Source: Woeseiaceae bacterium (GTDB taxonomy: Bacteria; Pseudomonadota; Gammaproteobacteria; Steroidobacterales; Woeseiaceae). From it: DNA of 64,000 bases. This document shows, piece after piece, positions 3,676 through 51,350 of the stretch. The number at the start of each line of letters is the position of its first letter. Positions within the stretch are counted from its first letter, which is position 1. The position numbers and the translations under genes are program-made. The stretch spans positions 1,656 to 65,655 of the forward strand of contig JANQMR010000039.1 of NCBI GenBank assembly GCA_028279985.1. Direction: 5' to 3'. A model generated the notes under the pieces. It did no database searches. It was given only the letters and a program-made list of their open reading frames with translations, and was not told the DNA's origin.

Positions 3676-3720
3676 GGGAATACGTCGGGGGGAAATACGT
3701 CTTGGGGAATACGTCGGGGC
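3676..3720. repeat. 15-nt x3 tandem repeat immediately upstream of the alaS start
   Basis: gggaatacgtcgggg / ggaaatacgtcttgg / ggaatacgtcggggc, contiguous, beginning 2 nt from the alaS ATG. Confidence 0.85.
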
Positions 3721-3777
3721 CGCCGGTGGAATATCAACCGTGCCGGGGAATGAGATAAACGGGTCTGTCGACAACGG

Positions 3778-3802
3778 GCCTAGTGTAGATGAGCCTAGTG
3801 TA
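3778..3802. repeat. 15-nt-period x2 repeat (gcctagtgta core) downstream of recX
   Basis: gcctagtgta occurs at 3778-3787 and 3793-3802. Both copies contain CTAG. Confidence 0.7.
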
Positions 3803-3825
3803 CGGGAATCGCAGGGCTTTGCGAG

Positions 3826-4368
3826 TCAATCCTCGCCGCCCACCGCGGCCTGGATCTGCTCGGACTCGAAGCCGCGATACTGTAAAAATCGCATCTGACG
3901 GCTCTTGTCCCTGAAATCGGCGGGCGTGGCCACGCCGAATTTCTTCTGCCTAACGTCGGCCGCCAGCGCCCGCCAATCGACACCGGCAGATTCGATCGCG
4001 GCGTCGGTCACCGACTCGCTCACCCCTTTCTCGCGGAGTTCGGCACGAATCCGGGCCGGCCCTTTGCCCTGGTTGATCCGCGACTGCAGGAAAGACTCGA
4101 CGAAACGCGCATCGCTTTGCAGGCCTTCGTCGTCCAGCGCCTCGAGGACGACCGCCGCAACGTCCGTGTCGAATCCCGCGGTCTTCAGTTTGCGTTCCAG
4201 CTCCCCCCGGGTATGCTCGCGCCGCGCAAGCAGGTCCATCGCCTTCTTACGCGCCGCAACCGGGTCTCGTGAACGATCGCCGCAATCGCCGCAATCGTCA
4301 ATGAAATCGTCGCCGGGAACGGTAACGATTTCATTGACGATGTCGTGGACCGAGGGTTTGTTTCCCAT
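3826..4368 (-). CDS. recX: Recombination regulator RecX
   Basis: 180-aa ORF directly downstream of recA. The helical-repeat sequence ...AMDLLARREHTRGELERKLKTAGF...ARFVESFLQSRINQGKGPARIRAELREKGV is typical of RecX. Confidence 0.85.
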   Translation of the reverse strand: MGNKPSVHDIVNEIVTVPGDDFIDDCGDCGDRSRDPVAARKKAMDLLARREHTRGELERKLKTAGFDTDVAAVVLEALDDEGLQSDARFVESFLQSRINQGKGPARIRAELREKGVSESVTDAAIESAGVDWRALAADVRQKKFGVATPADFRDKSRQMRFLQYRGFESEQIQAAVGGED

Positions 4369-4427
4369 CCGGGCTGGTGTCCTTTCCCCGGCGATTCCCG
4401 AGACGCTCTACCGGGCCTTTCTTCGGC

Positions 4428-4529
4428 TCCCTAAAGGTGTCTCTCCCTAAGGTGTCTCTCCCTAGGTCTCGTCTCGGTCTCCCTAGACCCTAGGCAACCC
4501 CCCTAGGATCCCCCAGGCATGCCTAGGCC
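4428..4529. repeat. Degenerate tandem repeats rich in CCTAGG / CCCTA(A)GG in the recA-recX spacer
   Basis: tccctaaaggtgtctc / tccctaaggtgtctc / tccctaggtctcgtctcggtc / tccctagac... Four CCTAGG palindromes lie at 4461, 4489, 4502 and 4522, and the last one contains the recA TAG stop (4523-4525). Confidence 0.85.
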
Positions 4530-5557
4530 TCTTTCGCCACCGCCTCGTCGGCGACGGCCTCGACCGTATTCGGCAACAACCGCGCACGGATCTTGTGCTC
4601 GATCTCGGCAGCCACTTCCGGATTGGTCCTCAGGAACTCGCGCACGTTTTCCTTGCCCTGGCCGATGCGATCGTCACCGTAGCTGTACCAGGAGCCGGCC
4701 TTGTCGACGATGCCGTTTTGCACGCCGAGCTCGATGATCTCACCTTCCCGGGAAATACCCTCGCCATAGAGGATCTCGAACTCGGCCAGCTTGAACGGCG
4801 GCGACACCTTGTTCTTGACAACCTTCACACGGGTCTGGTTGCCGATGACTTCGTCACCTTTCTTGATCGCGCCGATCCGCCGGATGTCGAGGCGCACCGA
4901 CGAGTAGAACTTGAGCGCATTACCGCCCGTCGTCGTCTCGGGACTGCCGAACATGACGCCGATTTTCATTCGGATCTGGTTGATGAAAATCACCATCGCG
5001 TTCGAACGCTTGATGTTGCCGGTGAGCTTGCGCAAGGCCTGCGACATCAGGCGCGCCTGCAGGCCGACATGGGAATCCCCCATCTCGCCTTCGATCTCGG
5101 CCTTGGGCGTCAAGGCCGCCACCGAGTCGACGACGATGACGTCCACCGCCCCCGACCGCACCAGCATGTCGGTGATCTCCAGCGCCTGCTCGCCGGTGTC
5201 GGGCTGCGATACCAGGAGCTCGTCGACGTCGACGCCGAGCTTTTCGGCATACACCGGATCGAGCGCATGCTCGGCATCGACGAAGGCCGCCGTGCCGCCC
5301 ACTTTTTGCGCCTCGGCGACGACCTGCAGGGTCAAGGTGGTTTTACCGGACGACTCCGGCCCGTAGATCTCGACCACCCGCCCCCTGGGTAAACCGCCGA
5401 TGCCGAGCGCCACGTCGAGCCCGATCGAGCCGGTCGACACCGCCTCGATGTCGCGCGACGCGCTGCCGTCACCGAGGCGCATGACCGAACCCTTGCCGAA
5501 CTGTTTTTCAATCTGGCCCAGGGCCTGTGCGAGCGCTTTTTTGCGGTTGTCGTCCAT
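4523..5557 (-). CDS. recA: Recombinase RecA
   Basis: Track ORF trimmed to the ATG at 5557 ([28 protein letters not shown]). Walker [10 protein letters not shown] is present, and the sequence is canonical RecA throughout. Confidence 0.97.
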
Positions 5558-5675
5558 TGTCTTCGTGTCATCCGGAGCGTGTTGAGACCAAGCAGGCATT
5601 ATTCCACAAAGCCCCGTCGCGAGCAGTAACGGCCCGACGGCGATTCCGGGCGATAGGTGAAGAAACGGACCGAAG

Positions 5676-6185
5676 CTATTGTTTCAGCGGGTGGTACTTT
5701 GCGCCGCCCGGCGCCGAGACCGACTCGATCAGCTCGAAGCCGGTCCAGTCCACCACTGCCGCTTGCGCCAGCCGCTGCGTTTCGAACGGCCGCGCGCGGC
5801 GAACGACGGTGATGTGCGGCCGGTAACGGCGCTCTTCGACCGTAACGCCCAGATCCGCAATGACCTCGTTCAGCGACTCGACCAGGCGCTCGAGCTCGGG
5901 CGACACCGTGGCACCGACCAGGCAGGCGACCTTGGAACGCGGCCAGTACTCCACCCGGTCGAAGCGGGTCCGAAACGGCTCGAAGGTCACGGCCGCGACG
6001 CGCGTCTTGAGTTCGGGAATGCGGCTTTCGGGAAAGGCGCCGATGAACGCCAGGGTCACGTGCCAATCGCCGCGATAAATCGCCTGGCCCTCGACGAGCT
6101 TTGCCACCGGGCTGATCTGGTTTCTCAGGCGGTCGCGCTGGCGGTCGTCCGGCCACAGCGCGTAAAACAGCCGTTTGGTGCTCAC
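5676..6185 (-). CDS. thpR: RNA 2',3'-cyclic phosphodiesterase (2H phosphoesterase, ThpR/LigT family)
   Basis: Two H-x-T motifs (HVTLAF and HITVVR) at the spacing typical of 2H phosphoesterases. The GTG start at 6185 forms a GTGA overlap with the pncC stop (6182-6184). The longer track ORF to 6335 would overlap pncC. Confidence 0.75.
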
Positions 6186-6697
6186 GGCCGCCGTTCCGCT
6201 TGCATACGCCCTCGAACCCCGTCGAGGGCGTGCGCGACGCTTTGCAGGCGAACCCGTTCGCGATCGCCGTCGAAGTCCCGGCGCTCGGCTTCGATGCACA
6301 CACCGTCGCCGCTGCGGCCTGCCCAGGCAAACCACACGGTACCCACGGGCTTGTCGATCGTGCCGCCGTCGGGGCCGGCCACACCGCTGACCGCAACCGC
6401 AAAGTCCGCGGCCGAGCGCTCGATTGCACCGGCGGCCATCTCCCGGACCACGGCTTCGCTGACCGCGCCGTGACCGCCGAGGGTGTTCTCGTCCACCCCC
6501 AAGAGCGCCGTCTTGGCGGGGTTCGAGTAGCTGACCACGCCGTAACCGAAACAGGCCGAGCTGCCCGCGATGTCGGTCAGCGCCTTGGCTATCCAGCCGC
6601 CGGTACAGGACTCGGCGGTGGCCAGCGTCTTCCCGGCGCCGCTCAGCGATCTCACGAGCCTTTCGGCCCGCTCGCGAATCTCGGCGTACTCAGTCAT
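6182..6697 (-). CDS. pncC: Nicotinamide-nucleotide amidohydrolase (CinA C-terminal domain, PncC)
   Basis: 171 aa with [21 protein letters not shown] and [12 protein letters not shown], which are typical CinA/PncC domain motifs. It sits in the usual position next to recA. Confidence 0.85.
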
Positions 6698-7775
6698 TCA
6701 GTATCGACTCGTAAAGCGCCACGTGCCTGTCCACCATCGTCTCGATCGAAAACTCGTTCCGCATACGGGTGCGGCCGGCGGCGCCCAGGCGCTGCCGCAG
6801 CGACGGGTCGCGCATCAAGCGCTCGATGGCCGCCGTCAACGCATCGGCATCGCCCGCCCCGACCAGGAGCCCGGTCTCCCCGTCCGCAACCGCCTCGACC
6901 AGGCCGCCCGCCGCAAAACCGACGACCGGGACCCCGGCCGCGGCGGCCTTCAGCGCCGCCACGCCCAGGCCCTCGCCGAGCGCCGGGTGGACGAACACGT
7001 CGATGCAACCGAAGAAACCGTCAAGATCGTCGCGAAAACCCGCAAACCGCACGATGTCGGAAACGCCGAGGCGCTCGGCCTGCTCGCGCAACTCGCGATC
7101 GAGCTCGCCTTCGCCGAACAGCACGACCCGAAACTCGGGCACCCGGCCGCGCAATGCCCGCACAGCGTCGAGCAGGAAACGGTGTCCCTTGCGCTCGATC
7201 AACTGCCCCGCCGCCGCGACGACCAGGGCATCGTCCGGCACGCCGAACTCGGAGCGCATGGCGGCACAATCCGGGTGATCGGTGAGCTGCTCCGCGTCCA
7301 CGGCGCTGCGAATCACGACCAGGCGCTCGTCCTCGACGCCGCTATCGCGCAATACGTCGGCAATCGCATTCGAGATCGCGATCACCTTCTTGAACGGCCG
7401 GTAACGCAAGGCCGCGATCAACCGCATTTCGGTATTGTCCACCCGCCGCGACACGACCGCCGGGATGTCGGCGAAGCCTGCGGCCAGCCCCCCCAACATG
7501 TCGGCGCCGCGGCGGCTGTGGCAATGCAGGATGTCGGGCTTTTTGTCCTTCAGGTACTGGGCGAGCCGATAGGCGAAGGGCAAATCCAGGTCGCCGGCGC
7601 AAAACAGGTTCCGCACCGGAATCGCGGCCCTGCGCGCGGCCGAGTCGATGCCGGAGCCGGGCGGACAGACCAGCGTACAGTCGTGACCGCGCTCGGCCAG
7701 GGCAGTCATCAGGTACAGGACCTGCTGCGGGCCGCCGTAGAGATGGCGTCCGGTTTCGACATGCAGTATTTTCAT
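6690..7775 (-). CDS. Glycosyltransferase family 4 (GT-B fold)
   Basis: 361-364 aa with the N-terminal MKILHVETG...GGPQQ pattern and the C-terminal E-x7-E region ([18 protein letters not shown]). ATG at 7775 is preferred over the upstream TTG at 7784. Confidence 0.8.
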
Positions 7776-7820
7776 TGGCCGCAATCATACTGCACCTGAT
7801 CGGTGGCGGCTCTTTAAAAC

Positions 7821-7864
7821 GCGCCACGAACGCGCCATGAATGCGCCATGAATGCGCCACGTAC
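7821..7864. repeat. 11-nt x4 tandem repeat in the GT4/mutS divergent spacer
   Basis: gcgccacgaac / gcgccatgaat / gcgccatgaat / gcgccacgtac, contiguous. Confidence 0.9.
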
Positions 7865-7910
7865 AGGCGCGAATCCTGTCGCGGCCTTCGGGAACCGCGC
7901 ATTTGACGAA

Positions 7911-7958
7911 CCATTCGAAAAACCATTCGATAAACCACTCGAAAAACCATTCGATGAA
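7911..7958. repeat. 12-nt x4 tandem repeat ending on the mutS start codon
   Basis: ccattcgaaaaa / ccattcgataaa / ccactcgaaaaa / ccattcgatgaa. The ATG at 7954 lies inside the last unit. Confidence 0.9.
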
Positions 7959-10545
7959 CCGAACGACAAACACCAACGTCTCCGCCGCCCACACGCCGAT
8001 GATGCGCCAGTATCTGCGCATCAAGGCCGACTATCCGGACATGCTGCTGTTCTACCGCATGGGCGATTTCTACGAGCTGTTCTACGAGGACGCGCAACGC
8101 GCCGCGAAGCTGCTCGATATCACCCTGACCTCGCGCGGCAAATCGGCCGGCAACGCCATCCCGATGGCCGGGGTGCCTTATCACGCGGTCGAAGGCTATC
8201 TCGCCAAACTCGTCAAACAGGGCGAGTCGGTGGCCATCTGCGAGCAGGTCGGCGACCCGGCTACGAGCAAGGGACCCGTCGAGCGAGAAGTCACGCGCAT
8301 CGTGACGCCGGGCACCCTGACCGACGAGGCGCTGCTCGATGCCCACGACGACAACCTCGTTGCCGCGATCGTTCCGGACGGCGACGCAACGGGAATCGCC
8401 TGGCTGGACTTGGCGGGCGGGCGCTTTCGGCTCACCGAAGTCGGCGACACCGAAGCCGTGCAGGCCGAGATCGAGCGGCTGAAACCCGCCGAGATCGTCA
8501 TCGACGAGGACCGCGGGGCGGCCCTGGCGTTCGACGAACGCATCCGCATCTCCAAACGCCCGCCCTGGCATTTCGACCTGGACAGCGCGACCCGGCTATT
8601 GTGCTCGCAGTTCGGCACCCGCGATCTCGAAGGCTTCGGCTGCGAGGGCATGGAACGCGGGATTGCCGCCGCCGGAGCGCTGCTGCAATACGTCGGCGAC
8701 ACGCAGAAAGCGTCGCTGCCGCATCTCGCGTCGCTCACCGTCGAGCGCCACGACGAGGCCGTCATCATGGACGGCCCGACCCGGCGCAACCTGGAGCTCG
8801 AAACCTCCCTGTCCGGCCACGACGAACACACGCTGGCCGCCGTCATGGACCGCTGCCACAGCCCAATGGGGTCGCGCCTGTTGCGGCGCTGGATTCAAAG
8901 ACCGCTGCGCAATGCCGGGATTCTGAAAGGCCGCTACCAGACGATCGACACGCTGCACGCCGCGGCACTCGTCGAGCCCCTGGCGGCGAAACTGACGGGT
9001 ATCGGCGATATCGAACGCATCCTCGCCCGGGTTGCGCTTCGCTCGGCGAGGCCCAGGGATTTGCGCCAGTTGGCGGAGGCGCTGTCGCGCCTGCCAGATC
9101 TCAAGGCATGTATCGCGGACCTGGATTCTCCATTGCTGCTCGCGCTCGAGCAGGCCATCGCCGAACACCGCGGCGAACACGGGCTACTCGACAAAGCGCT
9201 GGTGGACAACCCGCCGATGGTGATTCGCGACGGCGGCGTCATCGCGGCGGGGTTCGACGAAGAGCTGGACGAGCTTCGCGCGATTGCCGAGAACGCCGAT
9301 CAGTACCTGATCGATCTCGAAGCGCGCGAAAAAGCGCGTACCGGTATCCAGAACCTAAAACTCGGTTACAACCGCGTACACGGTTACTACATCGAGATCA
9401 GCAAGGGCCAGGCGGACAAGGCGCCGACGGAATACGTCCGCCGGCAGACGCTCAAGTCCGCGGAACGTTACATCATGCCCGAGCTCAAGACCTTCGAGGA
9501 CAAGGTGCTGAGCGCGCGTGAACGCGCATTGGCCCGGGAGAAACACCTCTATGACAGATTGATCGAGCGCCTGGTCGAGGTCCTGGCGCCGCTGAAGCAG
9601 ACGGCCGAGTCGATTGCCGAGCTCGACGTGCTGGTGTGTTTCGCGGAACGTGCGCTGGCGCTGAACCTCAGCCGCCCGGAGCTTGCCGAGGAGCCGTCGA
9701 TCGAAATCGAAGGCGGCCGCCACCTGGTCGTCGAACAGGTCATCGACACACCCTTCGTCGCCAACGACCTGACTCTCGGGCACGACCGGCACCTGCTGGT
9801 GATCACCGGTCCGAACATGGGCGGCAAGTCGACCTACATGCGGCAGACGGCCCTGATCGCGATCCTCGCGCACATCGGCAGTTACGTACCGGCCGAACGT
9901 CTCCGGATCGGCCCGCTGGACCGCATATTCACGCGCATCGGCGCATCGGACGATCTTGCGGGCGGACGCTCGACCTTCATGGTCGAAATGACCGAAACGG
10001 CGACGATACTCAACAACGCCACCGAAAGAAGCCTGGTATTGATGGACGAGATCGGCCGCGGCACCAGCACTTTCGACGGACTGTCGCTGGCCTGGGCGGC
10101 CGCCCATTACATGGGCGAGACGGCGCGGGCCTTGACCCTGTTCGCAACCCATTACTTCGAGCTGACGACCCTGACCGGGGAGTTGCCGGGCTGCGCCAAC
10201 GTGCACCTGGACGCGACGGACCACAAGGGGCAATTGGTGTTCCTGCACGCCGTCAAACCGGGCCCCGCGAGCCAGAGTTACGGGTTGCAGGTTGCCGCGC
10301 TGGCGGGCGTGCCGGCGGAGGTAATCCGTCGCGCGCGCGGCTATCTCGGCACGCTGGAGGCGGGACGAAACGACGGCCCCCAGGCCGAGCTGGATTTCTC
10401 CGCGTCGAAGGAAGCATCGAAGGACACGCCCGCAAAGACGCCGCCTGAAACCGATCCGCTGCGCGCCGCCGTAGACGCGCTGGATCCGGACGGGATGACG
10501 CCGCGCGATGCGATGGACGCCTTGTACCGGTTGAAAGCGCTGTAA
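7954..10545 (+). CDS. mutS: DNA mismatch repair protein MutS
   Basis: From the ATG at 7954 the product reads [43 protein letters not shown], collinear with the E. coli MutS N-terminus. Walker [10 protein letters not shown] is present. The upstream in-frame ATG at 7852 would add a 34-aa NHSK-repeat extension. Confidence 0.95.
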
Positions 10546-11208: not shown

Positions 11209-11528
11209 TTCCGGGTACCTGACTCTCCGGGTGGGGGCTTTGTTCCTGGTGGCAGATCTGTGGCGGGTGGAGGCTCGGTTCCCGGTGGAGGCTCTGTGCC
11301 GGGAGGGGGCTGCGTCCCTGGCGGAGGTTCTGTCCCTGGTGGAAACACCGTCCCCGGAGGGGGCTCCGTTCCGGGCGGAGGCTCTGTCCCTGGTGGTGGT
11401 TCCGTCCCCGGTGGAAACTCTGTTCCTGGCGGAAACTCTGTTCCTGGTGGAGGCTCCGTTCCGGGCGGGGGCTCGGTCCCCGGAGGGGGTTCAGTGCCCG
11501 GTGGAAACTCCGATCTCGACGAGGCCAT
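11205..11528 (-). CDS. Hypothetical proline-rich hexapeptide-repeat protein (about 15 x PPGTEP)
   Basis: ATG at 11528 lies 19 nt after the aspS stop, and the TGA overlaps the GTG of the downstream hydrolase. The body is an 18-nt repeat whose variation sits almost only at every third base. No signal peptide. The reading strand is inferred from context only. Confidence 0.45.
   Translation of the reverse strand: MASSRSEFPPGTEPPPGTEPPPGTEPPPGTEFPPGTEFPPGTEPPPGTEPPPGTEPPPGTVFPPGTEPPPGTQPPPGTEPPPGTEPPPATDLPPGTKPPPGESGTRK
11230..11517. repeat. 18-nt x about 16 tandem repeat (ggt gga ggc tcN gtN ccN on the plus strand)
   Basis: Sixteen contiguous 18-mers. Differences between units are concentrated at positions 3, 6, 9, 12, 15 and 18. 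Confidence 0.95.
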
Positions 11529-14588: not shown

Positions 14589-14624
14589 GCCTATCGCGCC
14601 TATCACGCCTATCACGCCTATTAG
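14589..14624. repeat. 9-nt x4 tandem repeat anchored on the clpB stop codon
   Basis: gcctatcgc / gcctatcac / gcctatcac / gcctattag. Read on the minus strand in the clpB frame this is TAA TAG GCG TGA TAG GCG TGA TAG GCG CGA TAG. Confidence 0.9.
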
Positions 14625-22684: not shown

Positions 22685-22686
22685 GT

Positions 22687-37690: not shown

Positions 37691-39409
37691 ATGGCAGCAA
37701 CGGCTTCACAAACCAATCTTGCTGGGCTACCTCGCCGGCTGGTGCAGGACGGCATTATTGCCGAGGACAGGCTCCAGGAAGCCACCGAAGCCGCCCGTAA
37801 GGACAAGCTGCCGCTCGTCGCCTATCTGGTCAACCAGGAACTCGCCGAGGCCCGCGCGATTGCGGTTGCGGCCTCACACGAATTCGGCGTGCCACTACTG
37901 GATCTTGATGCCATCGAGCTCGAAATCGACCTCATCCGTACGGTCGATCAAAAGCTGATCAACAAACACCGGGTGCTACCACTGGTCAAACGCGGCCAGC
38001 GCTTGTTTCTGGGTATCGCCGACCCGACCAACCTGCAGGCCATCGACGAGATCAAGTTCCAGACCAGCCTCAGGATCGACCCGGTTGTCGTCGAACAGGA
38101 CAAGCTCGAGGAGCGCATCATCAAGGCGATCGAGGCTGTCGATACGAGTATGCCGGGCCTCGAGGACGACGATTTTGACCTCGAGAACCTCGAGGTGGGT
38201 CCAGACGAGGAAGAGACTGAGGACGTTCACCGCGACGATATCGAGGACGCGCCGGTTGTCCGTTTTGTCAACAAAATCCTGCTCGATGCGATCAAACGCG
38301 GCGCATCGGACGTGCATTTCGAGCCCTACGAGAAGTACTTCCGCGTGCGGACACGCCTGGACGGTGTCTTGTCCGAGGTGGCACAACCGCCGGTCGCGCT
38401 TGCGAACAAGGTCTGCGCGCGGCTTAAGGTCATGTCGCGAATGGACATCGCTGAGCGCCGCGTACCACAGGACGGACGCATCAAGATGCGTTTGTCCAAG
38501 AATCGCGCGATCGATTTTCGAGTCAACACCTGTCCGACCTTGTTCGGCGAAAAAATCGTGTTACGTATCCTCGACCCGTCGAGTGCCAAGCTCGGTATCG
38601 ATATGTTGGGTTACGAGGAACATCAAAAAGACCTGTATATGAAACACCTGATGAAGCCCTATGGCATGATTCTGGTGACAGGTCCGACCGGTTCAGGTAA
38701 GACCGTGTCGCTGTACACGGGCCTCAACATCCTGAACACAGTGGATCGCAATATCTCGACAGCCGAGGATCCTGCCGAAATCAACCTGCCCGGCATCAAT
38801 CAGGTCAATGTGAATCCGAAGGTCGGCCTGACGTTCGCGTCTTCACTCAAAGCCTTTCTGCGCCAGGACCCGGACGTGATCATGGTAGGTGAGATTCGCG
38901 ATCTCGAGACGGCCGAGATAGCTATCAAAGCCGCACAGACCGGCCACCTGGTACTTTCCACGCTGCACACCAACGATGCCCCGCGCACTTTGACGCGCAT
39001 GGTGGACATGGGCGTGAAGCCCTATGCGATCGCAACCTCAGTTAGCCTGATCATCGCCCAACGTCTGGCGCGGCGGTTGTGCGACAACTGTAAGGAGGTT
39101 CGAGACGTGCCGCGCGAGGCCTTGGAAAAGGAAGGATTCGACGCCGGTGATCTCGACGACGGTTTGACAGTCTTTGGGCCGAAAGGCTGTAGACAGTGCA
39201 ACGACGGCTACAAAGGCCGGGTCGGCATCTTTCAGGTCATGGAGGTCTCGGAGACGATGGGCCGGATCATCATGGAAGGCGGCAACGCGATGCAGATCGC
39301 CGACCAGGCGGTCGCTGAAGGCGTTATCGATTTGCGCAGGGCTGGTTTGAACAAAGTCAAGGAAGGGGTTACCAGCCTGGAAGAGGTTAACCGGGTTACA
39401 ATCGAATAG
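37691..39409 (+). CDS. pilB: Type IV pilus assembly ATPase PilB
   Basis: 572 aa with an N-terminal GSPII-like domain, Walker A GPTGSGKT, and Asp/His boxes. A CxxC...CxxC-type tetracysteine cluster is present (CDNC...CRQC). Confidence 0.95.
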   Translation: MAATASQTNLAGLPRRLVQDGIIAEDRLQEATEAARKDKLPLVAYLVNQELAEARAIAVAASHEFGVPLLDLDAIELEIDLIRTVDQKLINKHRVLPLVKRGQRLFLGIADPTNLQAIDEIKFQTSLRIDPVVVEQDKLEERIIKAIEAVDTSMPGLEDDDFDLENLEVGPDEEETEDVHRDDIEDAPVVRFVNKILLDAIKRGASDVHFEPYEKYFRVRTRLDGVLSEVAQPPVALANKVCARLKVMSRMDIAERRVPQDGRIKMRLSKNRAIDFRVNTCPTLFGEKIVLRILDPSSAKLGIDMLGYEEHQKDLYMKHLMKPYGMILVTGPTGSGKTVSLYTGLNILNTVDRNISTAEDPAEINLPGINQVNVNPKVGLTFASSLKAFLRQDPDVIMVGEIRDLETAEIAIKAAQTGHLVLSTLHTNDAPRTLTRMVDMGVKPYAIATSVSLIIAQRLARRLCDNCKEVRDVPREALEKEGFDAGDLDDGLTVFGPKGCRQCNDGYKGRVGIFQVMEVSETMGRIIMEGGNAMQIADQAVAEGVIDLRRAGLNKVKEGVTSLEEVNRVTIE

Positions 39410-40755: not shown

Positions 40756-41652
40756 ATGGCCGAACTCTTCACCGAGGCCCCCGCCGTCTTCATTGCGGTC
40801 GTGTTTGCATTTGCATTGATGATCGGCAGCTTTCTCAACGTCGTGATCTACCGGCTGCCGCTCATGATGCAACGCGAATGGCGCGAACAATGCGCCGAGC
40901 TCGCGGAGACGGCGGCGCCCGAGCTGCCCGAGGTCAGCTTCAACGAGGGCCGGTTCAACCTGGTCGTGCCGCGCTCGCGCTGCCCTTCCTGCGGTGCCGC
41001 AATCAAGGCCTGGCAGAACATCCCCGTGCTGAGTTACCTGATGCTGGGCGGCCGCTGCGCCGAATGCCGCAAGACGATTTCACTGCGCTACCCGGTCGTC
41101 GAATTTGCCACCGCCGTGCTCTGCGCCGTGGTTGCCTGGCGATTCGGCTTCGGCTGGGAGTCGGTGATGGGGATCGGGCTGACCCTGGCGCTGGTGCCGA
41201 TCACACTGATCGACTACGACGAGCAACTCATCCCCGATTCGATCGTGCTGCCGCTCATGTGGGTCGGACTGGGCATGAGCCTTTTCCATCCGCTGGCCGG
41301 CGCCGACACGCTGTTCATCGCGCCAACCGACGCGATCGTCGGCGCGATGGCCGGTTATCTGACCTTGTGGGTTTTCTACCAAGCATTCAAGCTCGCTACC
41401 GGCAAGGAAGGCATGGGTTACGGCGACTTCAAGCTGCTCGCTGCGCTAGGCGCCTGGCTGGGCTGGCAATACCTGTTTACGATCATCATCACCTCCGCCG
41501 TCGTCGGCGCCGTGATCGGCATCGCCTTGATCGTGTTTCGCGGGCGGGATAGCCAGGTGCCCATCCCGTTCGGGCCGTTCCTGGCCGGCGCCGGTTGGAT
41601 AACGATGCTTTACGGCGACACCGTCAGGGACTTCCTGCATCTGCCGTTCTAG
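40756..41652 (+). CDS. pilD: Prepilin peptidase / N-methyltransferase PilD
   Basis: The ATG at 40756 gives MAELFTEAPAVFIAVVFAFALMIGSFLNVVIYRLP. It has the Cys cluster CPSC...CAEC and the catalytic Asp motifs (LIDYDEQLIPD; GMGYGDFKLLAALG). Confidence 0.9.
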   Translation: MAELFTEAPAVFIAVVFAFALMIGSFLNVVIYRLPLMMQREWREQCAELAETAAPELPEVSFNEGRFNLVVPRSRCPSCGAAIKAWQNIPVLSYLMLGGRCAECRKTISLRYPVVEFATAVLCAVVAWRFGFGWESVMGIGLTLALVPITLIDYDEQLIPDSIVLPLMWVGLGMSLFHPLAGADTLFIAPTDAIVGAMAGYLTLWVFYQAFKLATGKEGMGYGDFKLLAALGAWLGWQYLFTIIITSAVVGAVIGIALIVFRGRDSQVPIPFGPFLAGAGWITMLYGDTVRDFLHLPF

Positions 41653-41707
41653 TGCCTTTATAACTAGTGCCTTTATAACAGGGCCTTTGTAACTAGGGCC
41701 TTTTAAC
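41650..41707. repeat. 15-nt-period x4 tandem repeat anchored on the pilD stop
   Basis: tagtgcctttataac / tagtgcctttataac / agggcctttgtaac / tagggccttttaac. The first TAG (41650-41652) is the pilD stop and the second TAG is in frame with it. Confidence 0.9.
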
Positions 41708-41883
41708 ACGACGCCAGTGAAGCCCGCTGAGTCCCAAACCGCGCCAACCCTAAGTGCTAGGAGCGAGCTTTGTGACACTGAATGAGATAAGCGACGAGCA
41801 ACACCGAGTGGCGCGGTTTGGGAACTCGACCCGAAGGGCTGGTGCTGTGTTTCCGGCTAGCCAGGCTCCGAGAGGAGGATTGC

Positions 41884-42510
41884 GTGACCGACACGCGTGA
41901 CGACAAGACACGGCCACTCCGAGTCGGCCTGACCGGCGGAATCGCCAGCGGCAAGTCCACGGTCAGCGCCATCTTTGCCGAACTCGGCGCCGCCGTGATC
42001 GACACCGACGTCATCGCGCGCGAAGTGGTCGCGCCCGGACAAGCGGCCATCGACGAAATCCGCCGCGAATTCGGCGAGGACTACCTCACCGCCGACGGCA
42101 AGCTCGACCGCGCGACGATGCGCCGTCTGGTGTTCGCCGACGACACGGCACGTTCCAGGCTCGAGGCGATCCTGCACCCGCGGATTCGTGACGAGACTCT
42201 CGCACAAGCCACGGCGGCCGGCGGCCCCTACCAACTGATCGTCGTACCGCTGCTGGTCGATTCGCCCTTATTGCAATTCGTCGATCGGGTCCTGGCCGTG
42301 GACTGCGCCGAGGACACGCAGATCGAGCGTTTGATGGCGCGGGACGCGGATTCCGAAGAACAGGCCCGTCGCATTTTGGCGACACAAGCCAGCCGGCAGG
42401 AACGACTGGCCATCGCCGACGATGTAATCGACAACGACGGTTCGCTGGAGCGAACACGACGGCAAATCCTCGCACTGGACCGCGCATATCGCGCAGAAAG
42501 CGCCTGCTAG
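41884..42510 (+). CDS. coaE: Dephospho-CoA kinase
   Basis: GTG at 41884 is preceded by GAGAGGAGGA. P-loop GLTGGIASGKST. About 208 aa, in the usual position after pilD. Confidence 0.9.
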   Translation: MTDTRDDKTRPLRVGLTGGIASGKSTVSAIFAELGAAVIDTDVIAREVVAPGQAAIDEIRREFGEDYLTADGKLDRATMRRLVFADDTARSRLEAILHPRIRDETLAQATAAGGPYQLIVVPLLVDSPLLQFVDRVLAVDCAEDTQIERLMARDADSEEQARRILATQASRQERLAIADDVIDNDGSLERTRRQILALDRAYRAESAC

Positions 42511-42533
42511 GGACGACTGTTAGGGACGACAGG
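42508..42533. repeat. 13-nt x2 repeat anchored on the coaE stop
   Basis: tagggacgactgt / tagggacgacagg. The first TAG is the coaE stop. Confidence 0.8.
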
Positions 42534-42576
42534 GGCTGATTTGCCCTGCCGCAAGCGGTGGCGCAGAATAAGCTGC

Positions 42577-43377
42577 ATGGTGAAACCTGCGGGCAAAATA
42601 GCCGCTCATACGGTGAAGGGCGGTGCGTACTACGAGCAACCGCTGAACGAACGCATGCGCACCTTTCTGAGGCTGGAGTTCCTCTACCAGCAGTTGCTCA
42701 TTTTTTTCGAGCGCGAGGCCGACTGGGCGACCCGGGCCACGATCGCGACCCTGCTCGAGATCCTGGCCATCCTGTCGCGCGGCGACGTGCGCAGCGAAGT
42801 CCACAAGGAACTCGACCACCAACTCGACCTGCTCAGGCGATTCCAGAGCCAGCCGGAGGTCGACACCCGTCGCCTCGACTCGCTGGTCCGTAATCTGATC
42901 GACAGCCGCGCGCGGTTGAGCGAGATCGGCACCAAATACCTGCAACCGCTGAAAGACAGCGAGTTCCTGAACGCGATCAAACACAGGAGTTCGATCCCGG
43001 GCGGAACCTGCGAGTTCGATCTGCCCGAGTACAGTCACTGGCTCAGACAGACCTTCAGCCGCCGCGCCGAGGATCTGTCGCGCTGGATCGACGCAATACG
43101 CCCGCTGTGCGATGCGGTCGCCGAAGTGCTCTGGCTGATACGCGAGAGCGCGCGCCCCGTGGAGAAGCGTGCGATCAACGGCATGTATCAACACAACATG
43201 CAAAAGGATACGAGCTGCCGGCTGTTGAGAGTGAGCCTGCCGGAAGGAAGCTCCCTGTTCCCCGAAATCAGCGGCAGCCAGCACCGCTTCACGATACGTT
43301 TTCTCGACTGGTCCACGATCGACAGCCGCGCCGTCCAGACCGGACACGACGTGGACTTTCAGTTGTCGATTTGCTGA
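42577..43377 (+). CDS. zapD: Cell division protein ZapD (YacF)
   Basis: Collinear with E. coli ZapD: YEQPLNERMRTFLRLEFLYQQL..., RSSIPGGTCEFDLPEYSHWL, LFPEISGSQHRFTIRF. ATG at 42577 is preferred over the TTG at 42541. Confidence 0.85.
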   Translation: MVKPAGKIAAHTVKGGAYYEQPLNERMRTFLRLEFLYQQLLIFFEREADWATRATIATLLEILAILSRGDVRSEVHKELDHQLDLLRRFQSQPEVDTRRLDSLVRNLIDSRARLSEIGTKYLQPLKDSEFLNAIKHRSSIPGGTCEFDLPEYSHWLRQTFSRRAEDLSRWIDAIRPLCDAVAEVLWLIRESARPVEKRAINGMYQHNMQKDTSCRLLRVSLPEGSSLFPEISGSQHRFTIRFLDWSTIDSRAVQTGHDVDFQLSIC

Positions 43378-43382
43378 GTCGG

Positions 43383-43455
43383 CCGGACCGTCATCCGGAC
43401 AATTGTCATCTGTACGATCGTCAACCGGACGATTATCAATCGTACGACCGTCAAC
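43383..43455. repeat. 15-nt x5 degenerate tandem repeat anchored on the mutT stop
   Basis: The plus-strand tca triplets at 43391, 43406, 43421, 43436 and 43451 are exactly 15 nt apart. On the minus strand these are five TGA codons in the mutT frame, the first being the mutT stop. Confidence 0.85.
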
Positions 43456-43864
43456 CGGACCGAATCCCGACGGCTTCCAACTCGCACAAGGCCTCGATGA
43501 CCGGTCGGTCCGCGGGCAGCAGGTTCGCATCGGACAGCCCCCGGGCCTCGACCCAGCGCAGGCGCTGACCTTCCCGGCCCTCCGGTTCGTTACGCCAGGC
43601 GCTGATCAGGAAAAAGTCGATCGACACCGCCCGGTCCGGATACTCGTGTTCGAGGTGCATGAAATGACGCGATGACTCGAGCCCGATACCCAGTTCCTCG
43701 GCGAGCTCGCGATGCAAGGCCTGTTCAGCACTCTCGCCGGCGCCGATCTTGCCGCCGGGAAACTCCCACATCCCCTGGAACGGGCCGTCACCGAGACGCT
43801 CGGCGATCAGGACCCGGCCGTCCGCGTCACGCAGAATACCGGCCGCTACCGCAAAACGGTTCAT
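43451..43864 (-). CDS. mutT: Nudix hydrolase, MutT-like (8-oxo-dGTP diphosphatase)
   Basis: The ATG at 43864 gives MNRFAVAAGILRDADGRVLIAER... Nudix box GGKIGAGESAEQALHRELAEELG. It starts 4 nt after the secA stop, matching the secA-mutT synteny of E. coli. Confidence 0.8.
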   Translation of the reverse strand: MNRFAVAAGILRDADGRVLIAERLGDGPFQGMWEFPGGKIGAGESAEQALHRELAEELGIGLESSRHFMHLEHEYPDRAVSIDFFLISAWRNEPEGREGQRLRWVEARGLSDANLLPADRPVIEALCELEAVGIRSG

Positions 43865-46811: not shown

Positions 46812-47107
46812 GAAGGACTCCTGCGGAACGCTTGCGCCGGCCCGAGCCGATTGGCCCCGGGCGAAACCCGGTATTTTAGAGGCTTGTGCACGTGTTTAGT
46901 ACCTGCCGGGGGCTTCCGGCGAATCGCCGAACAACCGCCTGGGCCCTCGACGGCTCCCTTGTGACGGCTTCGGTTATCGCTGTCGCGGAACTGTGGTCGA
47001 ATCAGCCGATCACAAGCCCAATCGGACTATTATTGGCCGCATCTTCGGGCACATCTTTGAGTCCGTCGTCAGGCCCCGCCGACCGCTCTCCGGATTGGAT
47101 GTCCGCC

Positions 47108-48040
47108 CTAGTCGGAGGTTCCGCGAATGAAATTGACCGGATTCACCCGACGACCGCCTTTCAGCACTTCGAAATGCAGGTTCGGACCGGTCGCCCGTCC
47201 GGTTTCCCCCATCAATGCAACGGTCTGACCCTTGCGGATCTCGTCGCCGACGTCGACCAGGTTTTCGGAATTGTGCGCGTAACGCGTTGCGTAGCCGTTG
47301 CCGTGATTGATCTCGACCATCAGTCCGTAGCCGTAACGCTTGCCCGACCAGGTAACGACGCCGTCGGCGACGGCAACGATGTCGGACCCCGACTTGCCCG
47401 CGAAGTCGATACCGGTGTGGTTCGCAGGTTTACCCGTGAACGGATCGGTGCGCTTGCCGAAGTAGGACGAAATCCAGCCCGACTTGACCGGCCGGCCCTG
47501 CGGATAAACCCGTTGTTTCAGATTCTGCCCGGCGATGACGGCCTCGAGCACACCGAGTTGCGCTTCGCGGTCGTCGAGCTGCAGATCGAGTTGCTGCATC
47601 GCTTCGACGACCTCCGGAATCGCTACGCCGGAACCGGTGGCAACCGGCTCTTCCGGTCCACCTACGGCCGGAACATGGTCGAAATCGAACTCGCCGTCAT
47701 CGATGTCCGCCATATCGGTGAGGCGTCGGCCCAAGGCATCGAGGCGGATGATCCGCGCGTTCATCTGCGCCATGCGTATCGCCAGTGCGTCCAGCGTGTC
47801 TTCCTTGTCCTGCCGAATCGCCGCGATCGTCTGCTGCTGGGAGTCGATTTCTTCGTTCAGCGACACCAGTTCGCCGGCGCTGACGCCGGACCCCGTGTGA
47901 GAAGCATACAAGTAACCGCCGGTGAAACCCGCGGCGCCGAGGACACCGAGCAGACCAAATGCGGCGACACCGATGGACAAGCCGGACAGGGTCAGTTGCC
48001 GGAGCTTGCCAAGCCCCTTGCCGAAAATCACCACGTTCAT
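47108..48040 (-). CDS. M23-family (LytM-type) metallopeptidase-domain protein with N-terminal TM helix and coiled coil
   Basis: ATG at 48040 (MNVVIFGKGLGKLRQLTLSGLSIGVAAFGLL). C-terminal LytM domain with HTGIDFA, YAH and GPNLHFEV. The 5' extension in the track (TTG at 48121) runs through a tandem repeat. Confidence 0.8.
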   Translation of the reverse strand: MNVVIFGKGLGKLRQLTLSGLSIGVAAFGLLGVLGAAGFTGGYLYASHTGSGVSAGELVSLNEEIDSQQQTIAAIRQDKEDTLDALAIRMAQMNARIIRLDALGRRLTDMADIDDGEFDFDHVPAVGGPEEPVATGSGVAIPEVVEAMQQLDLQLDDREAQLGVLEAVIAGQNLKQRVYPQGRPVKSGWISSYFGKRTDPFTGKPANHTGIDFAGKSGSDIVAVADGVVTWSGKRYGYGLMVEINHGNGYATRYAHNSENLVDVGDEIRKGQTVALMGETGRATGPNLHFEVLKGGRRVNPVNFIRGTSD

Positions 48041-48080
48041 CGAAACCGCCTCGAGTGCGCTTTTGTCGTCTTGTCGTTTT

Positions 48081-48125
48081 TCCGCCGGTAACTTTTCCAC
48101 CGGTAACTCGTCCACCGGCAACGCG
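48081..48125. repeat. 15-nt x3 tandem repeat upstream of the M23 peptidase gene
   Basis: tccgccggtaacttt / tccaccggtaactcg / tccaccggcaacgcg. Confidence 0.85.
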
Positions 48126-48391
48126 GTGTCGTTCGAGCGTCGGCATCGTTGCGGCGATCACCCGTGTTCTGTAACTTGCGGTGGATCATCGTTCAGGCAG
48201 CCCCGCTGTCTTGGGAAAGAATCCCTTGAGACCGGTGAGACCGGTGGTTTTGCGCCCCCGCTTTTCGGCAGGTTTGCCTTTGGACACCCGCCAATATGCA
48301 TAATGTCCGTTTTTAATACAAGAACAAGGCGCTGGAACGGTGACTCCGGTCACTTCCAGCCGGCCGAATTCGTCAACCCAATCACGTCTCG

Positions 48392-48691
48392 ATGCCCGCA
48401 AAACGCCTTGGAAGCTTGATTAACCCCTTGAATAACGGGGAGTTGGCGGACATCGTCCGGCGTGCCAGGGACATGGGCGCGCTGGTCGAGGCCCTGGCCC
48501 AATCGCTGCCTCCGGACGAAGCCGGAAGTCTGGTCGCCGCGAACCTTCGCGACGACGGCGAGTTGGTCGTGATCTGCCGTTCCCCGGCCTGGGCGGCCCG
48601 GCTCCGTTACGAAGCGGACACCCTGTTGGACGCCGCCCGGCGACACGGGGCCGTTGCGAACCGGCTTACGATACGCGTCGCACGCCCGTGA
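48392..48691 (+). CDS. DUF721-domain protein (DciA-like family)
   Basis: 99 aa. The C-terminal pattern GELVVICRSPAWAARLRYEADTLLDAAR...LTIRV matches the DUF721 signature as I recall it. The position between secA/M23 and lpxC is conserved in many gammaproteobacteria. Confidence 0.55.
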   Translation: MPAKRLGSLINPLNNGELADIVRRARDMGALVEALAQSLPPDEAGSLVAANLRDDGELVVICRSPAWAARLRYEADTLLDAARRHGAVANRLTIRVARP

Positions 48692-48777
48692 TCCCAAAGT
48701 AAACGGGGCTCGCCCGCGCTATCCGCCGTCTCGGCCGACGCCGGGGAACGGAAATCGGCTGGTACCTCCCCGGCCGA

Positions 48778-49686
48778 TCAGGCGTAAGACGGGGTCGCGT
48801 AGGAGATGGGTGACTTGCGGGAATCCTCGAAGATCGTTTCTTCCCAGGCGGACTCCTGTTCGAGCAGCTCGCGCAAGAGCTTGTTGTTGAGACCGTGCCC
48901 GGACTTGTAGGCGCTGTACTCTCCGATCAGCGTGTGTCCGAGCAAATACATATCGCCGATCGCATCGAGAATCTTGTGGATGACGAACTCGTTCGAGTAG
49001 CGCAGGCCGTCTTCGTTGAGAATCCGGTAGTCGTCGAGAACGATGGCGTTGTCCATGCTGCCGCCCAAAGTCAGGTTGCGCTCGCGCAAGGCCTCGACGT
49101 CGCGAAGAAAACAAAACGTGCGGGCCCGGCTGATCTCTTTCAGGAATGAGGTCGAAGAAAAATCGATACTGGCATTCTGGCTGATCTTGTTGAACACCGG
49201 GTGATTGAAAAACACCTCAAAGTTCACTTTGAAACCGTTGAAAGGCCGAAGCTCCGCCCACTTGTCGCCGTCCTCGACCCGAACCCGCTTCTTGATGCGG
49301 ATAAAACGCTTGGGCGCGTTTTGTTCCTCGATACCGGCGGATTGCAGCAAAAACACGAACGGACCCGCGCTGCCGTCCATGATCGGCACTTCAGCGGCCG
49401 ACAGATCGACGTTGAGATTGTCGATTCCGAGCCCCGCCAAAGCAGACATCAGGTGCTCGACGGTGGCGACTTTGACGCCGTCTTTGATCAGCGTCGTGCC
49501 CAACATGGTTTCGCCGACCAGCTTCGGGTTCGCCGGCACGTCGGCGGGTTCGTCCAGGTCGACGCGGCGGAACACAATACCGGTGTTTTCGGCGGCGGGC
49601 CTCAAGGTCATGTAGACCTTCTCACCGGTGTGCAACCCCACCCCGGTTGCACGAATCGCCGTTCTCAGTGTTCGCTGTTGCAACAT
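48778..49686 (-). CDS. lpxC: UDP-3-O-acyl-N-acetylglucosamine deacetylase
   Basis: The ATG at 49686 gives [31 protein letters not shown], collinear with E. coli LpxC ([21 protein letters not shown]). Confidence 0.95.
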
Positions 49687-49997
49687 CGCTACCGCTTTTT
49701 GCTTTTGAAACTCGGCGGCTGCTGCCGATCTGTTGTAGACCCACCACAGCATTGCCGTGAATGTGTCATTTTGATGTCAGCCGAGCGCGCGCAAGCGTAG
49801 CATAGCGTTTTCAAACTTTTCAAGATTTTCAGTGCGTTATGACTTCATGTCAGACACTGCCCGAACACGGGGATCGCAGGACGAAGCAAAATCGCCGACC
49901 CGGGGCGAAAAACCCGGGCCGGCGCGGAGGTTGCGCCCCGACGCTGGTGAGTGCGGTTGCGGCGATGCGTCGGAGCGCCGGCGGGATACGACCCGAT

Positions 49998-50069
49998 CCG
50001 CCTGGCGGTGGATCGACCCGCTAGCGGCGGGCTAATACGCCTGGCGGCGCACTAGTCCGCCTGACGGCG
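49998..50069. repeat. Four palindromic CCGCC-N-GGCGG-type units at about 20-nt spacing spanning the ftsZ stop
   Basis: ccgcctggcgg (49998), ccgctagcgg (50018), cgcctggcg (50038) and cgcctgacggcg (50058). The ftsZ TAG (50052-50054) lies between the last two units, and the last unit encodes the ftsZ C-terminal residues. Confidence 0.75.
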
Positions 50070-51197
50070 AAGGAATGCCGGAATGTCGAGCAGTTCCTCC
50101 TGCAGCCCCATCGGTTCGACGTCGTCACCCACCGCGCGCTTGCGCTGCACGGTCGGTTTGTCCAGCCCGTGATAGTTCGGCTCCACCGGCTGTTGCGCGG
50201 GACGGCGAACGATGCGCATCGGCGACTCCGATTGCGCCGCAGCCTGACCGAGCCCGGTGGCGACCACGGTAACCCGGATCCGGTCGGTCATGTCGGGATC
50301 GATCACGGTGCCGACGACGACCGTCGCATCGTCGGATGCGAACTCCTTGACGGTGTTGCCCACGCCCTGGAACTCGCCGATGGACAGGTCCATTCCGGCC
50401 GTCACGTTGACCAGGATGCCGTTCGCACCGGCCAGGTTGATGTCCTCGAGCAGCGGCGAGGAAACGGCCGCCTCGGCGGCTTCGCGGGCACGATCTTCGC
50501 CCGACGAGGAACCCGAGCCCATCATCGCCATACCCATCTCGGCCATGACGGTCCTGACATCGGCGAAGTCGACGTTGATCAGCCCCGGCCGGGTGATCAG
50601 CTCGGCGATACCCTGCACGGCGCCCTGCAAGACCTGATTGGCCGAACGGAAGGCGTCCAGCAAGGTCGTTTCGCCCCCGAGAACGGTCAGGAGCTTCTCG
50701 TTCGGAATCGTGATCAGCGAATCGACGTACTTGCCGAGCTCCGAGATACCGTGATCGGCGATGGCCATGCGCTTGGCGCCCTCCATCGAAAACGGCTTGG
50801 TCACGACGGCGACGGTCAGGATACCGAGCTCCTTGGCAACCTGCGCCACGACGGGCGTCGCACCCGTGCCGGTGCCGCCGCCCATGCCGGCCGTGATGAA
50901 CAACATGTCCGCGCCTTCGATCACCTCGTGAATCCGGTCACGATCCTCCATCGCCGCCTGCCGGCCGACGTCGGGGTCCGCCCCGGCTCCCAGACCCTTG
51001 GTGATGTTGCAGCCGATTTGCAGCGAGGTTCGGACTCGCGATCCCTTCAAGGCCTGCGCATCGGTATTGGCGCAAATGAAGTCCACGCCTTCGATGCCGG
51101 CTTCCACCATGTGCGCGACGGCGTTGCCGCCGCCGCCGCCGACCCCGATGACCTTGATGACCGCGCTCTGGCTGTGCGCATCCATTAACTCAAACAT
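50052..51197 (-). CDS. ftsZ: Cell division GTPase FtsZ
   Basis: ATG at 51197 ([27 protein letters not shown]) with a GGAGGA RBS. Tubulin signature GGGTGTG. The C-terminal conserved peptide [11 protein letters not shown] is present. Confidence 0.97.
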
Positions 51198-51294
51198 CTG
51201 TGTTTCCTCCGCGTCATGCTCGTTCGGGGCACTCACCCAGCCCCTGCTTCGATCCGGCCGTCTCCTGCCGGTTTTCTTTTGGCGATGTTGCCGC

Positions 51295-51350
51295 CAAACC
51301 CAAGAATCTTTCCTAAACAAGAATTCTTCATAAACAAAAATCTTGCTAAA
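51295..51350. repeat. 16-17-nt x3 AT-rich tandem repeat anchored on the ftsA stop
   Basis: On the minus strand: TTTAGCAAGATTTTTG / TTTATGAAGAATTCTTG / TTTAGGAAAGATTCTTG. The first TAG is the ftsA stop (51346-51348). Confidence 0.75.

Follow-up and report, generated by a model that had tools for sequence, protein, structure and literature searches.

Why do so many gene boundaries in a bacterial genome carry short tandem repeats? The question is raised by a stretch of 64 kb (hereafter the window) from one genome of a Woeseiaceae bacterium (GCA_028279985.1, contig JANQMR010000039.1), in which arrays of short direct repeats lie at the ends or starts of genes such as recA, mutS, clpB, sucD, pilD, ftsZ and ftsA. 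The initial annotation described these arrays as anchored on stop codons or abutting start codons, and proposed either a lineage-specific process (slippage or duplication at termination regions) or a function (fail-safe stops, terminators, protein-binding sites). The burst of short tandem duplications that they record is real, specific to the lineage, recent and still under way. We consider it very probable that they are young, locus-specific minisatellites, produced by tandem duplication of 9-40 nt of local sequence, altered in length by slippage and filtered by selection.

We compared the window with close relatives that total about 140 kb. The window DNA itself is present in four coral metagenome runs (X1-X4), and the closest relatives were obtained, via homologues of RecX, ZapD and PgeF, from TARA coral metagenomes and one JGI sample. 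The conspecific strains are X5 and L113, the latter being 95.5% identical over 13 kb. The sister species used were L029, L030 and L032 for the alaS-mutS side, L118, L119 and L120 for the clpB-suc side, and L114 and L116 for the pil-fts side. The nearest genomes by RecX are metagenome-assembled Woeseiaceae (50-67% identity), and a metagenome scan with the M23 protein retrieved only distant relatives (72-77% identity), which served as a baseline and not as sister taxa. Look-ups of the exact RecA and SucD proteins gave no match. Genes were named with NCBIfam and Pfam.

Tandem Repeats Finder (TRF) recovers all the arrays listed at the outset except the pair at 3778-3802, with matches of 71-100% and 2-4.7 copies. 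The units abut head-to-tail; a CRISPR array was rejected because no unique spacers separate the repeats. In 200 dinucleotide-preserving shuffles of the 27 spacers, arrays of score at least 50 appeared with a mean of 0.04, against 13 observed, and those of score at least 40 with a mean of 0.29, against 15. According to the curated gene map, intergenic DNA makes up 8% of the window and yet holds 13 of the 18 arrays of score at least 50, a density about 30 times that of coding sequence. Outside the lower-GC island between pilR and pilB, 14 of the 24 spacers of at least 20 nt bear an array, so that the first estimate of roughly half of the gene ends holds. No array of score at least 50 lies in this pilin island, as had also been noticed; we do not take this absence as evidence, because its 810 nt of spacer should hold about two arrays and the probability of finding none (about 0.13) is not significant.

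The initial annotation had raised the concern that the arrays could be assembly artefacts. Over 3530-8077, 21650-22800 and 47950-51450, the window is reproduced without any difference by independent contigs from three runs (X1, X2 and X3), and the arrays in these stretches are therefore no assembly artefact. The three arrays within 41649-43460 are seen only in the related strains X5 and L113, and related strains and species assembled by other groups hold the same or related arrays. Given these matches and the scarcity of arrays in the shuffles, the probability that the arrays reflect assembly or sequencing errors, or chance, is negligible.

The units copy what lies at each site: a stop codon with the following ribosome-binding site, last codons plus stop, a start codon, a promoter -10 box, or part of a riboswitch aptamer (Table 1). 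At clpB, sucD, pilD and ftsA, each unit contains a stop codon. A single-copy local ancestor is seen in sister species at nine loci: alaS 5′, the alaS -10 box, the mutS start, ftsA-ftsZ, the M23 leader, zapD/mutT, sucC-sucD, pgeF and the riboswitch aptamer. For instance, the alaS 5′ unit occurs once in L029, L030 and L032 (CCCCGAAGTATTCCGA, directly followed by ATG), and the family-conserved -10-like box CGTACACTAG is single-copy in the same three species and across Woeseiaceae. The mutS 5′ array is not found in sister species, which have a single mutS start region; in the window, the upstream unit copies read ATA or AAA where the last unit has ATG. In the neighbouring array at 7818-7861, the sisters have about two degenerate copies. 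The ftsA unit (TTTTAGCGGGTTTTTTGGG) and the M23 leader unit are single in L114 and L116, as is the 9-nt segment of the aptamer, also single in L034; the 40-nt pgeF segment is single in L120, whose PgeF is 89% identical. The sucC-sucD unit, which reads AGT TAG TGGAAGGGA twice in gene sense, is single in L118. The clpB stop array is absent in L118 and L119.

The copying of gene ends is seen, among others, at ftsZ, coaE and mutT. At ftsZ, the unit CGC CGT CAG GCG GAC TAG corresponds to the conserved C-terminal RRQAD plus the stop; this array is older, being shared with sister species of the genus at 3-4 units, and 13 other Woeseiaceae lack it and have a conserved terminator hairpin instead. At coaE, the duplication shifted the frame and brought the TAG of the unit into frame, where it is the present stop; the sister sequence GATAGCGACGACAACCGC TGA aligns to the second unit, and the ancestral TGA persists about 30 nt downstream. 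The mutT array, read in gene sense, consists of five or six 15-nt copies of the last codons plus TGA. Its position is corrected here to the spacer between the convergent zapD and mutT genes, whose stops are only 1-13 nt apart in L114 and L116.

The units themselves are unrelated among loci, in agreement with the first description. The longest word shared between arrays of the window is at most 9 nt, against a null mean of 9.0, and because cross-array words are no longer than this null, the arrays are, as judged from their units, not a dispersed repeat family. This bears directly on the idea that they are insertions of a mobile or dispersed family, such as MIRU, REP/BIME or miniature inverted-repeat elements. 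MIRU units measure 46-101 bp. They occur in tandem exactly at gene junctions, overlap start and stop codons with little harm to the flanking genes, and form one dispersed family, apparently mobile, whose members have a sequence in common and contain an ORF coupled to the gene downstream (PMC12548453). The arrays of the window resemble them in lying at gene junctions and over start and stop codons but differ in their unrelated, locally derived units of 9-40 nt, which share no family sequence. As to an internal ORF, no consistent reading frame across units came to light, although no search aimed at one was made. REP/BIME elements (RAYT-associated, GTAG-headed palindromes) likewise occupy short spacers directly after stops, whereas the window arrays are non-palindromic head-to-tail direct repeats with neither a consensus nor a GTAG-headed hairpin. 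Insertion at gene junctions has a precedent in MIRUs (PMC12548453), and other Woeseiaceae bear REP-like hairpins on TAG stops in the same spacers; nevertheless, the lack of a shared unit consensus and of palindromic structure, together with the homology of the units to single-copy local sequence in sisters, coding ends included, makes a mobile origin exceedingly improbable. The REP-like hairpins of other Woeseiaceae (GTAGGAGCCCGCC...GGCGGGCGAC and GTGGGAGCGGCTTTAGCCGCGA) are located in the recA-recX and recX-alaS spacers (L017 381-569, L022 1004-1320, L024 856-900, L025 10522-10620, L008, L020, and L032 5700-5830) and often take the TAG of the stop codon as element head; those of L017 form a 47-nt tandem array.

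The arrays are unstable within the species. Copy number varies among conspecific strains at six loci (recA, pilD, sucC, sucD, mutT and the M23-secA spacer), so that the comparison of related strains suggested at the outset does reveal whole-unit differences. Relative to the window, the pilD array is one 15-nt unit shorter in X5 and L113, and in X5 the sucC-sucD duplication is back to a single copy (15 nt fewer), the sucD array is longer by 42 nt, or three units, and the recA array lacks 17 nt at 4433. The M23-secA spacer differs by +14 and +10 nt, and the mutT array in run X8 by +8 nt, which is not a whole unit. Arrays of stable copy number gather substitutions fast: the ftsA array of X5 has an equal number of units with seven substitutions in about 40 nt and three 1-nt indels, and the region 5′ of mutS has eight in 73 nt (7818-7890), six of them inside the array, plus a 1-nt insertion. 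The alaS 5′ array of X5 has an equal copy number and a 1-nt indel. In the M23-secA spacer of the window (46940-47080), we observed decayed repeats of 12-14 nt, under the TRF threshold, whereas that of L113 (12845-12996) holds clear arrays of 14 nt × 3.6 and 12 nt × 3.1; the comparison shows arrays arising and decaying inside a single species.

At these junctions, sister lineages show duplications that arose independently. Right after its recA stop, L029 has a different array of 14 nt × 3.4, where L030 has none; L116 has separately duplicated 12 nt of the zapD end and has its own repeats in the pilD-coaE spacer, which is 0 nt long in most other Woeseiaceae; L118 has its own 15-nt duplication after sucD, and in both L118 and L119 the whole clpB promoter region is a 102-nt × 2.5 tandem repeat (L118 10777-11029). 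Counting arrays of period 7-60 and score at least 50, we obtained 2.81 per 10 kb in the window and 3.61 in the conspecific L113, 1.39 in the sister species (122 kb), 0.61 in other Woeseiaceae genomes (343 kb), 0.12 in 80 syntenic Woeseiaceae metagenome contigs (721 kb) and 0 in Ferrimonas. Array density thus falls with phylogenetic distance from the window species. A general expansion of spacers relative to the family was rejected: only the ftsA-ftsZ spacer clearly exceeds the family values (109 nt; median 41, maximum 94), the others being too variable. We consider it equally probable that duplications of this kind arise or are kept far more frequently in this coral-associated Woeseiaceae species, and to a lesser degree in its genus, than in the relatives. 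Lineage-specific slippage or duplication, one of the two possibilities raised initially, thereby receives strong support from the single copies in sisters, the whole-unit differences among strains and the density gradient; its supposed restriction to termination regions does not stand.

Five arrays classed as coding reach a score of 50 (periods 21, 12, 15, 12 and 12), and all their periods are multiples of three. Of these five, that of 15 nt, at the M23 peptidase gene, turned out to be part of the leader, upstream of the true start. ClpB and MurG each carry a tandem insertion of four amino acids without counterpart in the relatives aligned; the one in murG, noticed at first as an in-frame 12-nt repeat near the 3′ end of the gene, is recovered by TRF. 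In the variable N-terminal segment of RecX, each sister lineage has different in-frame repeats at the same place, and the pilD gene of L113 differs by an in-frame indel of 15 nt. All indels of at least 4 nt that separate the window from L113 are in spacers or in frame. The same duplication process therefore acts in genes and not only at termination regions.

Could the arrays nevertheless be selected functional elements, that is, back-up stops against TAG read-through, 3′-UTR or terminator structures, arrays of protein-binding sites, or tunable spacers for translational coupling? Start and stop codons do occur inside units and many units hold stops, those with 9- and 15-nt periods (clpB, pilD, mutT) keep these stops in frame, and TAG terminates 19 of the 52 genes of the window (37%; TGA 27, TAA 6). 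Most periods, however, among them 13, 14, 17, 20 and 40 nt, are not multiples of three and break the frame. Folding is strong for the ftsZ array (z = -3.4), but the other z-scores among 12 arrays range from +0.6 to -2.3, with several arrays unfolded, an inconsistency that rules out a common RNA structure. Intrinsic terminators (a GC-rich hairpin followed by a U tract) were also ruled out, since none of the 35 terminator-like sites overlaps any array and the conserved ftsZ terminator (49893-49924) is located about 100 nt downstream of the ftsZ array. Moreover, contigs of the metatranscriptome X6, in which DNA carry-over is possible, span the sucD array continuously into the nadE start region and also the sucC-sucD duplication; because they run continuously through, transcription of these arrays is probable and a role as strong terminators is not. 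Three arrays are placed where they could change expression, namely at the mutS promoter, at the sucD ribosome-binding site and in the riboswitch leader. Against a selected function stand, in addition, the unrelated units, the sister species that keep the same genes without arrays, and the variation of copy number among strains. We therefore regard it as very improbable, and the functions first envisaged (fail-safe stops, terminators, binding sites) find no support in the form of a shared motif, a consistent RNA structure or a terminator-like site.

Two sequence features suspected in the units fared no better. The 6-nt palindromes seen by eye, which could have pointed to restriction sites, are refuted by counts (arrays have 22 per kb and coding sequence 23; 9 of 16 arrays with palindromes against a shuffle mean of 7.9). 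The frequent CTAG pointed out in the initial annotation is a true excess, with 18 observed against 11.3 expected under a Markov model, but a modest one that follows from the amplification of units containing TAG stops, and we rejected it as a special signal.

How, then, would duplications of local sequence come to lie at gene boundaries? We propose that 9-40 nt of whatever lies at a site would be duplicated in tandem, that the copies would then expand and contract by slippage, and that selection would set where duplications survive. In a tandem duplication, nothing is altered before the first copy has ended or once the second has begun, so that the upstream protein is spared when a stop is spanned, and the downstream gene when a start is. 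Where ancestral spacers were short, many neutral placements are bound to take in a boundary codon. In coding sequence, copies would persist in frame and in tolerant segments; out-of-frame copies would do so only in dispensable C-terminal tails, with a new stop arising inside the array, as at coaE. The expected outcome is that arrays pile up at gene boundaries, many with a stop in every unit. Effects on expression, through extra stops, a doubled ribosome-binding site or -10 box, or an altered riboswitch leader, are proposed to be by-products and not the cause. At the molecular level, the duplications may stem from replication slippage or template switching, maybe with a weakened safeguard such as single-strand exonucleases, or from weak purifying selection in a host-associated population. 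Tandem-repeat rearrangements in Escherichia coli are RecA-independent, stimulated by replication defects and suppressed by single-strand exonucleases, which makes the genes for these exonucleases the first candidates.

We compared the position of the arrays with a null of uniform placement in the reconstructed ancestral spacers, and with a variant in which 35 nt before a start are protected. Nine of 12 arrays include a stop, against 3.2 expected under the uniform null (P = 5e-5) and 4.4 with the protected 35 nt (P = 1e-3). Among the stop-including arrays, three or four start exactly at the stop, against about two expected, which is not significant. The anchoring on stop codons described initially thus survives the placement null and is partly explained, whereas an exact start at the stop is not significant. 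For recA it does not hold, because the core of the array is 48 nt from the stop and only degenerate TAGG-rich copies reach it.

This excess also speaks for the main rival, or refinement, in which duplication is mutationally targeted to the end of translation, the pattern being a bias and not a selection filter. A possible route would be R-loops of untranslated nascent RNA or a pile-up of RNA polymerase, leading to replication stalling and slippage. Besides the nine stop-including arrays, the three arrays in long spacers (clpB, pilD and ftsZ) all lie at the stop, with a prior of 0.06-0.09 each. Start codons, promoter regions, coding sequence and a riboswitch aptamer, however, bear arrays as well, and several boundaries are within operons, where translation resumes at once (sucC-sucD, ftsA-ftsZ). 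The null, moreover, ignores constraint on promoters and ribosome-binding sites as well as stop-creating frameshifts such as that of coaE, and the sample amounts to 12 arrays. We consider this explanation unlikely. Slightly less probable still is a combined scenario in which the lineage has a specific alteration of replication or repair, or an instability linked to transcription and translation, that makes duplications of about 9-20 nt preferentially at translation ends, and in which core housekeeping operons would be adjusted by the polymorphic arrays as by evolvable tuning knobs. The knobs could bear on sucC-sucD coupling, the clpB heat-shock promoter, the c-di-GMP riboswitch leader and the promoter and start of mutS; if true, this would be a contingency-locus strategy on central genes of a host-associated bacterium.

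Several points weigh against local duplication filtered by selection as a complete account. The excess of stop-including arrays remains only partly explained: stop-creating frameshifts, together with a constraint that is stronger in the promoter-proximal half of spacers, account for some of it, but pure geometry and selection are not fully sufficient. Units tend to measure 9-20 nt, and exactly 15 nt in six arrays, a hint of a specific mechanism. The sister spacers at sucD, pilD and clpB are too diverged for an ancestral single copy to be found. Any genome-wide statement is an extrapolation from the window and the close relatives compared, and the cause may be either a higher mutation rate or weaker purging.

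The arrays belong to a known kind, the bacterial minisatellites or variable-number tandem repeats (VNTRs), with an unusually high density and an unusually legible evolutionary record. Like VNTRs, they have head-to-tail copies, whole-unit differences between strains (the +8 nt of mutT excepted), single-copy local ancestors, and periods in multiples of three in coding sequence. In Burkholderia pseudomallei, 68-75% of arrays are intergenic, units in genes are multiples of three, and copy number mutates quickly between strains by slipped-strand mispairing (PMC1853098). The window shares with this species its many locus-specific, mostly intergenic and fast-mutating arrays with triplet units in genes (PMC1853098). 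Units in B. pseudomallei are, however, mostly 6-9 nt in 4-10 copies, against 9-40 nt in 2-5 copies here, and 36% of its arrays recur elsewhere in the genome, whereas none does so within the window. Array density here appears about three times higher (2.8 against roughly 0.8 per 10 kb, the detection criteria being different), and the systematic inclusion of stops and starts and the demonstrable single-copy ancestors are not described for B. pseudomallei. Phase-variable contingency repeats have units of 1-8 nt in many copies, in promoters or 5′ coding regions of surface and virulence genes. The arrays resemble them in their proneness to slippage, in their location near promoters and gene ends and in that a change of length may affect expression, but differ in their longer units, their housekeeping genes, their mostly 3′ position and the absence of an apparent on/off frame logic. 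Literature searches returned no description of the arrays of this lineage.

The locus offers a natural example of the birth of bacterial intergenic DNA in which ancestral and derived states are both visible: spacers that measure 0-13 nt in relatives reach 73-189 nt in the window, grown for the most part from copies of their own ends. A gene can survive the doubling of its stop codon, ribosome-binding site, -10 box or riboswitch segment, which provides raw material for new regulation. The arrays are usable as VNTR strain markers for an uncultured coral-associated bacterium, and they are a warning for gene calling, which is affected at the starts of M23, clpB and recX and at the stop of coaE. 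Should the loss of a safeguard against slippage prove to be the cause, the formation of bacterial minisatellites could be studied in this lineage as in a natural mutant.

Table 1. Tandem repeats of the window, with unit length × copy number; amino acid units are separated by a slash.
Feature	Position	Strand	Repeat and context
alaS 5′ array	3676-3719	-	14 nt × 3.1 (TRF); ends 1 nt before alaS ATG (3674)
Duplicated alaS promoter-like box CGTACACTAG	3778-3802	-	exact 10-mer TACACTAGGC twice, 15-nt spacing; under TRF threshold
recX in-frame repeat	4276-4297	-	9 nt × 2.4; variable N-terminal segment
recA-recX spacer array	4427-4522	-	core TAGGGAGAGACACCT, 15 nt × 3.2 (4427-4475), then degenerate TAGG-rich copies to recA TAG (4523-4525)
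Divergent GT4 glycosyltransferase/mutS promoter-region array	7818-7861		11 nt × 4 (TRF)
mutS 5′ array	7900-7960	+	TRF 12 nt × 3.8 or 24 nt × 2.5; last unit contains mutS ATG (7954), next unit first codons
clpB stop array	14589-14621	-	9 nt × 3.7 (TAGGCGTGA); in frame, directly after TAA
clpB in-frame duplication	14995-15023	-	12 nt, HYEE/RYEA; 4-aa insertion vs L005, L011, L019
pgeF stop duplication	17311-17396	-	40 nt × 2.2; spans pgeF TGA (17373-17375), upstream of clpB sigma-32-like promoter
sucD stop array	21752-21815	-	14 nt × 4.6; TAG opens each unit
sucC-sucD duplication	22686-22715	-	exact 15 nt × 2.0 (100%), AGTTAGTGGAAGGGA twice; sucC stop + sucD ribosome-binding site
pilD stop array	41649-41707	+	15 nt × 4.1; begins at TAG
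coaE end duplication	42504-42530	+	13 nt × 2.1; within C-terminal codons
mutT end array	43386-43460	-	15 nt × 4.7 (30 nt × 2.5); fills convergent zapD/mutT spacer
M23 leader array	48078-48122	-	15 nt × 3; between c-di-GMP-I aptamer and ATG (48040), 38-82 nt upstream of start
Aptamer duplication	48227-48246	-	9 nt CACCGGTCT × 2; inside c-di-GMP-I riboswitch aptamer (48193-48288)
lpxC upstream repeat	49808-49831	-	weak, 9 nt × 2.7 (TTTTCAAAA), TRF score 34; overlaps promoter-like hit
ftsZ end array	50024-50069	-	20 nt × 2.3 or more; units copy RRQAD codons + stop
ftsA stop array	51301-51350	-	17 nt × 2.6-3; TAG included
murG in-frame duplication	56770-56795	-	12 nt × 2.2, RITE/RITE; 4-aa insertion vs 10 relatives

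The genes of the window are arranged in the order csrA, alaS, recX, recA, thpR, cinA, a GT4 glycosyltransferase gene, mutS, an alpha/beta hydrolase gene, aspS, DUF502, a zinc-ribbon protein gene, clpB, pgeF, rluD, bamD, nadE, sucD, sucC, pilS, pilR, the lower-GC island, pilB, pilC, pilD, coaE, zapD, mutT, secA, the M23 peptidase gene, dciA and lpxC, followed by ftsZ through murE. The 37% share of TAG stops seems high for a genome of 63% GC. The start of clpB is at 17212 and not at 17317, and its upstream region (17213-17310) contains a sigma-32-like CTTGAAA box that is kept across the clade. The true start of the M23 peptidase is at 48040 (MNVVIFGK), the relatives having stop codons upstream of MNVVIFGK; the array first placed directly 5′ of this gene is indeed upstream of it but does not abut the start, lying in a leader with a c-di-GMP-I riboswitch (RF01051, 56 bits; 48193-48288, minus strand).

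The lower-GC island (27200-37700, 53-58% GC) encodes glycosyltransferase-like proteins and pilins, and its gene content varies among the window, L113, L114 and L116, which makes it a variable pilin or glycosylation locus. In the pilD-coaE spacer (41735-41825), a 14-bp inverted repeat (CCCAAACCGCGCCA ... TGGCGCGGTTTGGG, about 60 nt apart) is also present in L113 and not in L114. Between the hydrolase gene and aspS (11227-11512), there is a repeat of period 18/54/90 nt, whose plus strand would read GGSVP-like. This region is kept in sisters (L029 2048-2367, L030 2577-2890, L118 17290-17634), in which gene callers place an ORF of 207-220 amino acids without Pfam match, and a Gly/Pro-rich repeat protein is a candidate only. 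Finally, a tRNA-Arg and a tRNA-Ser gene are located beyond csrA (275-476), and at this position relatives carry integrase, transposase and phage-like genes (L029 14100-16457, L030 14474-17302, L032 10116-13498); the site is probably an integration hot spot.

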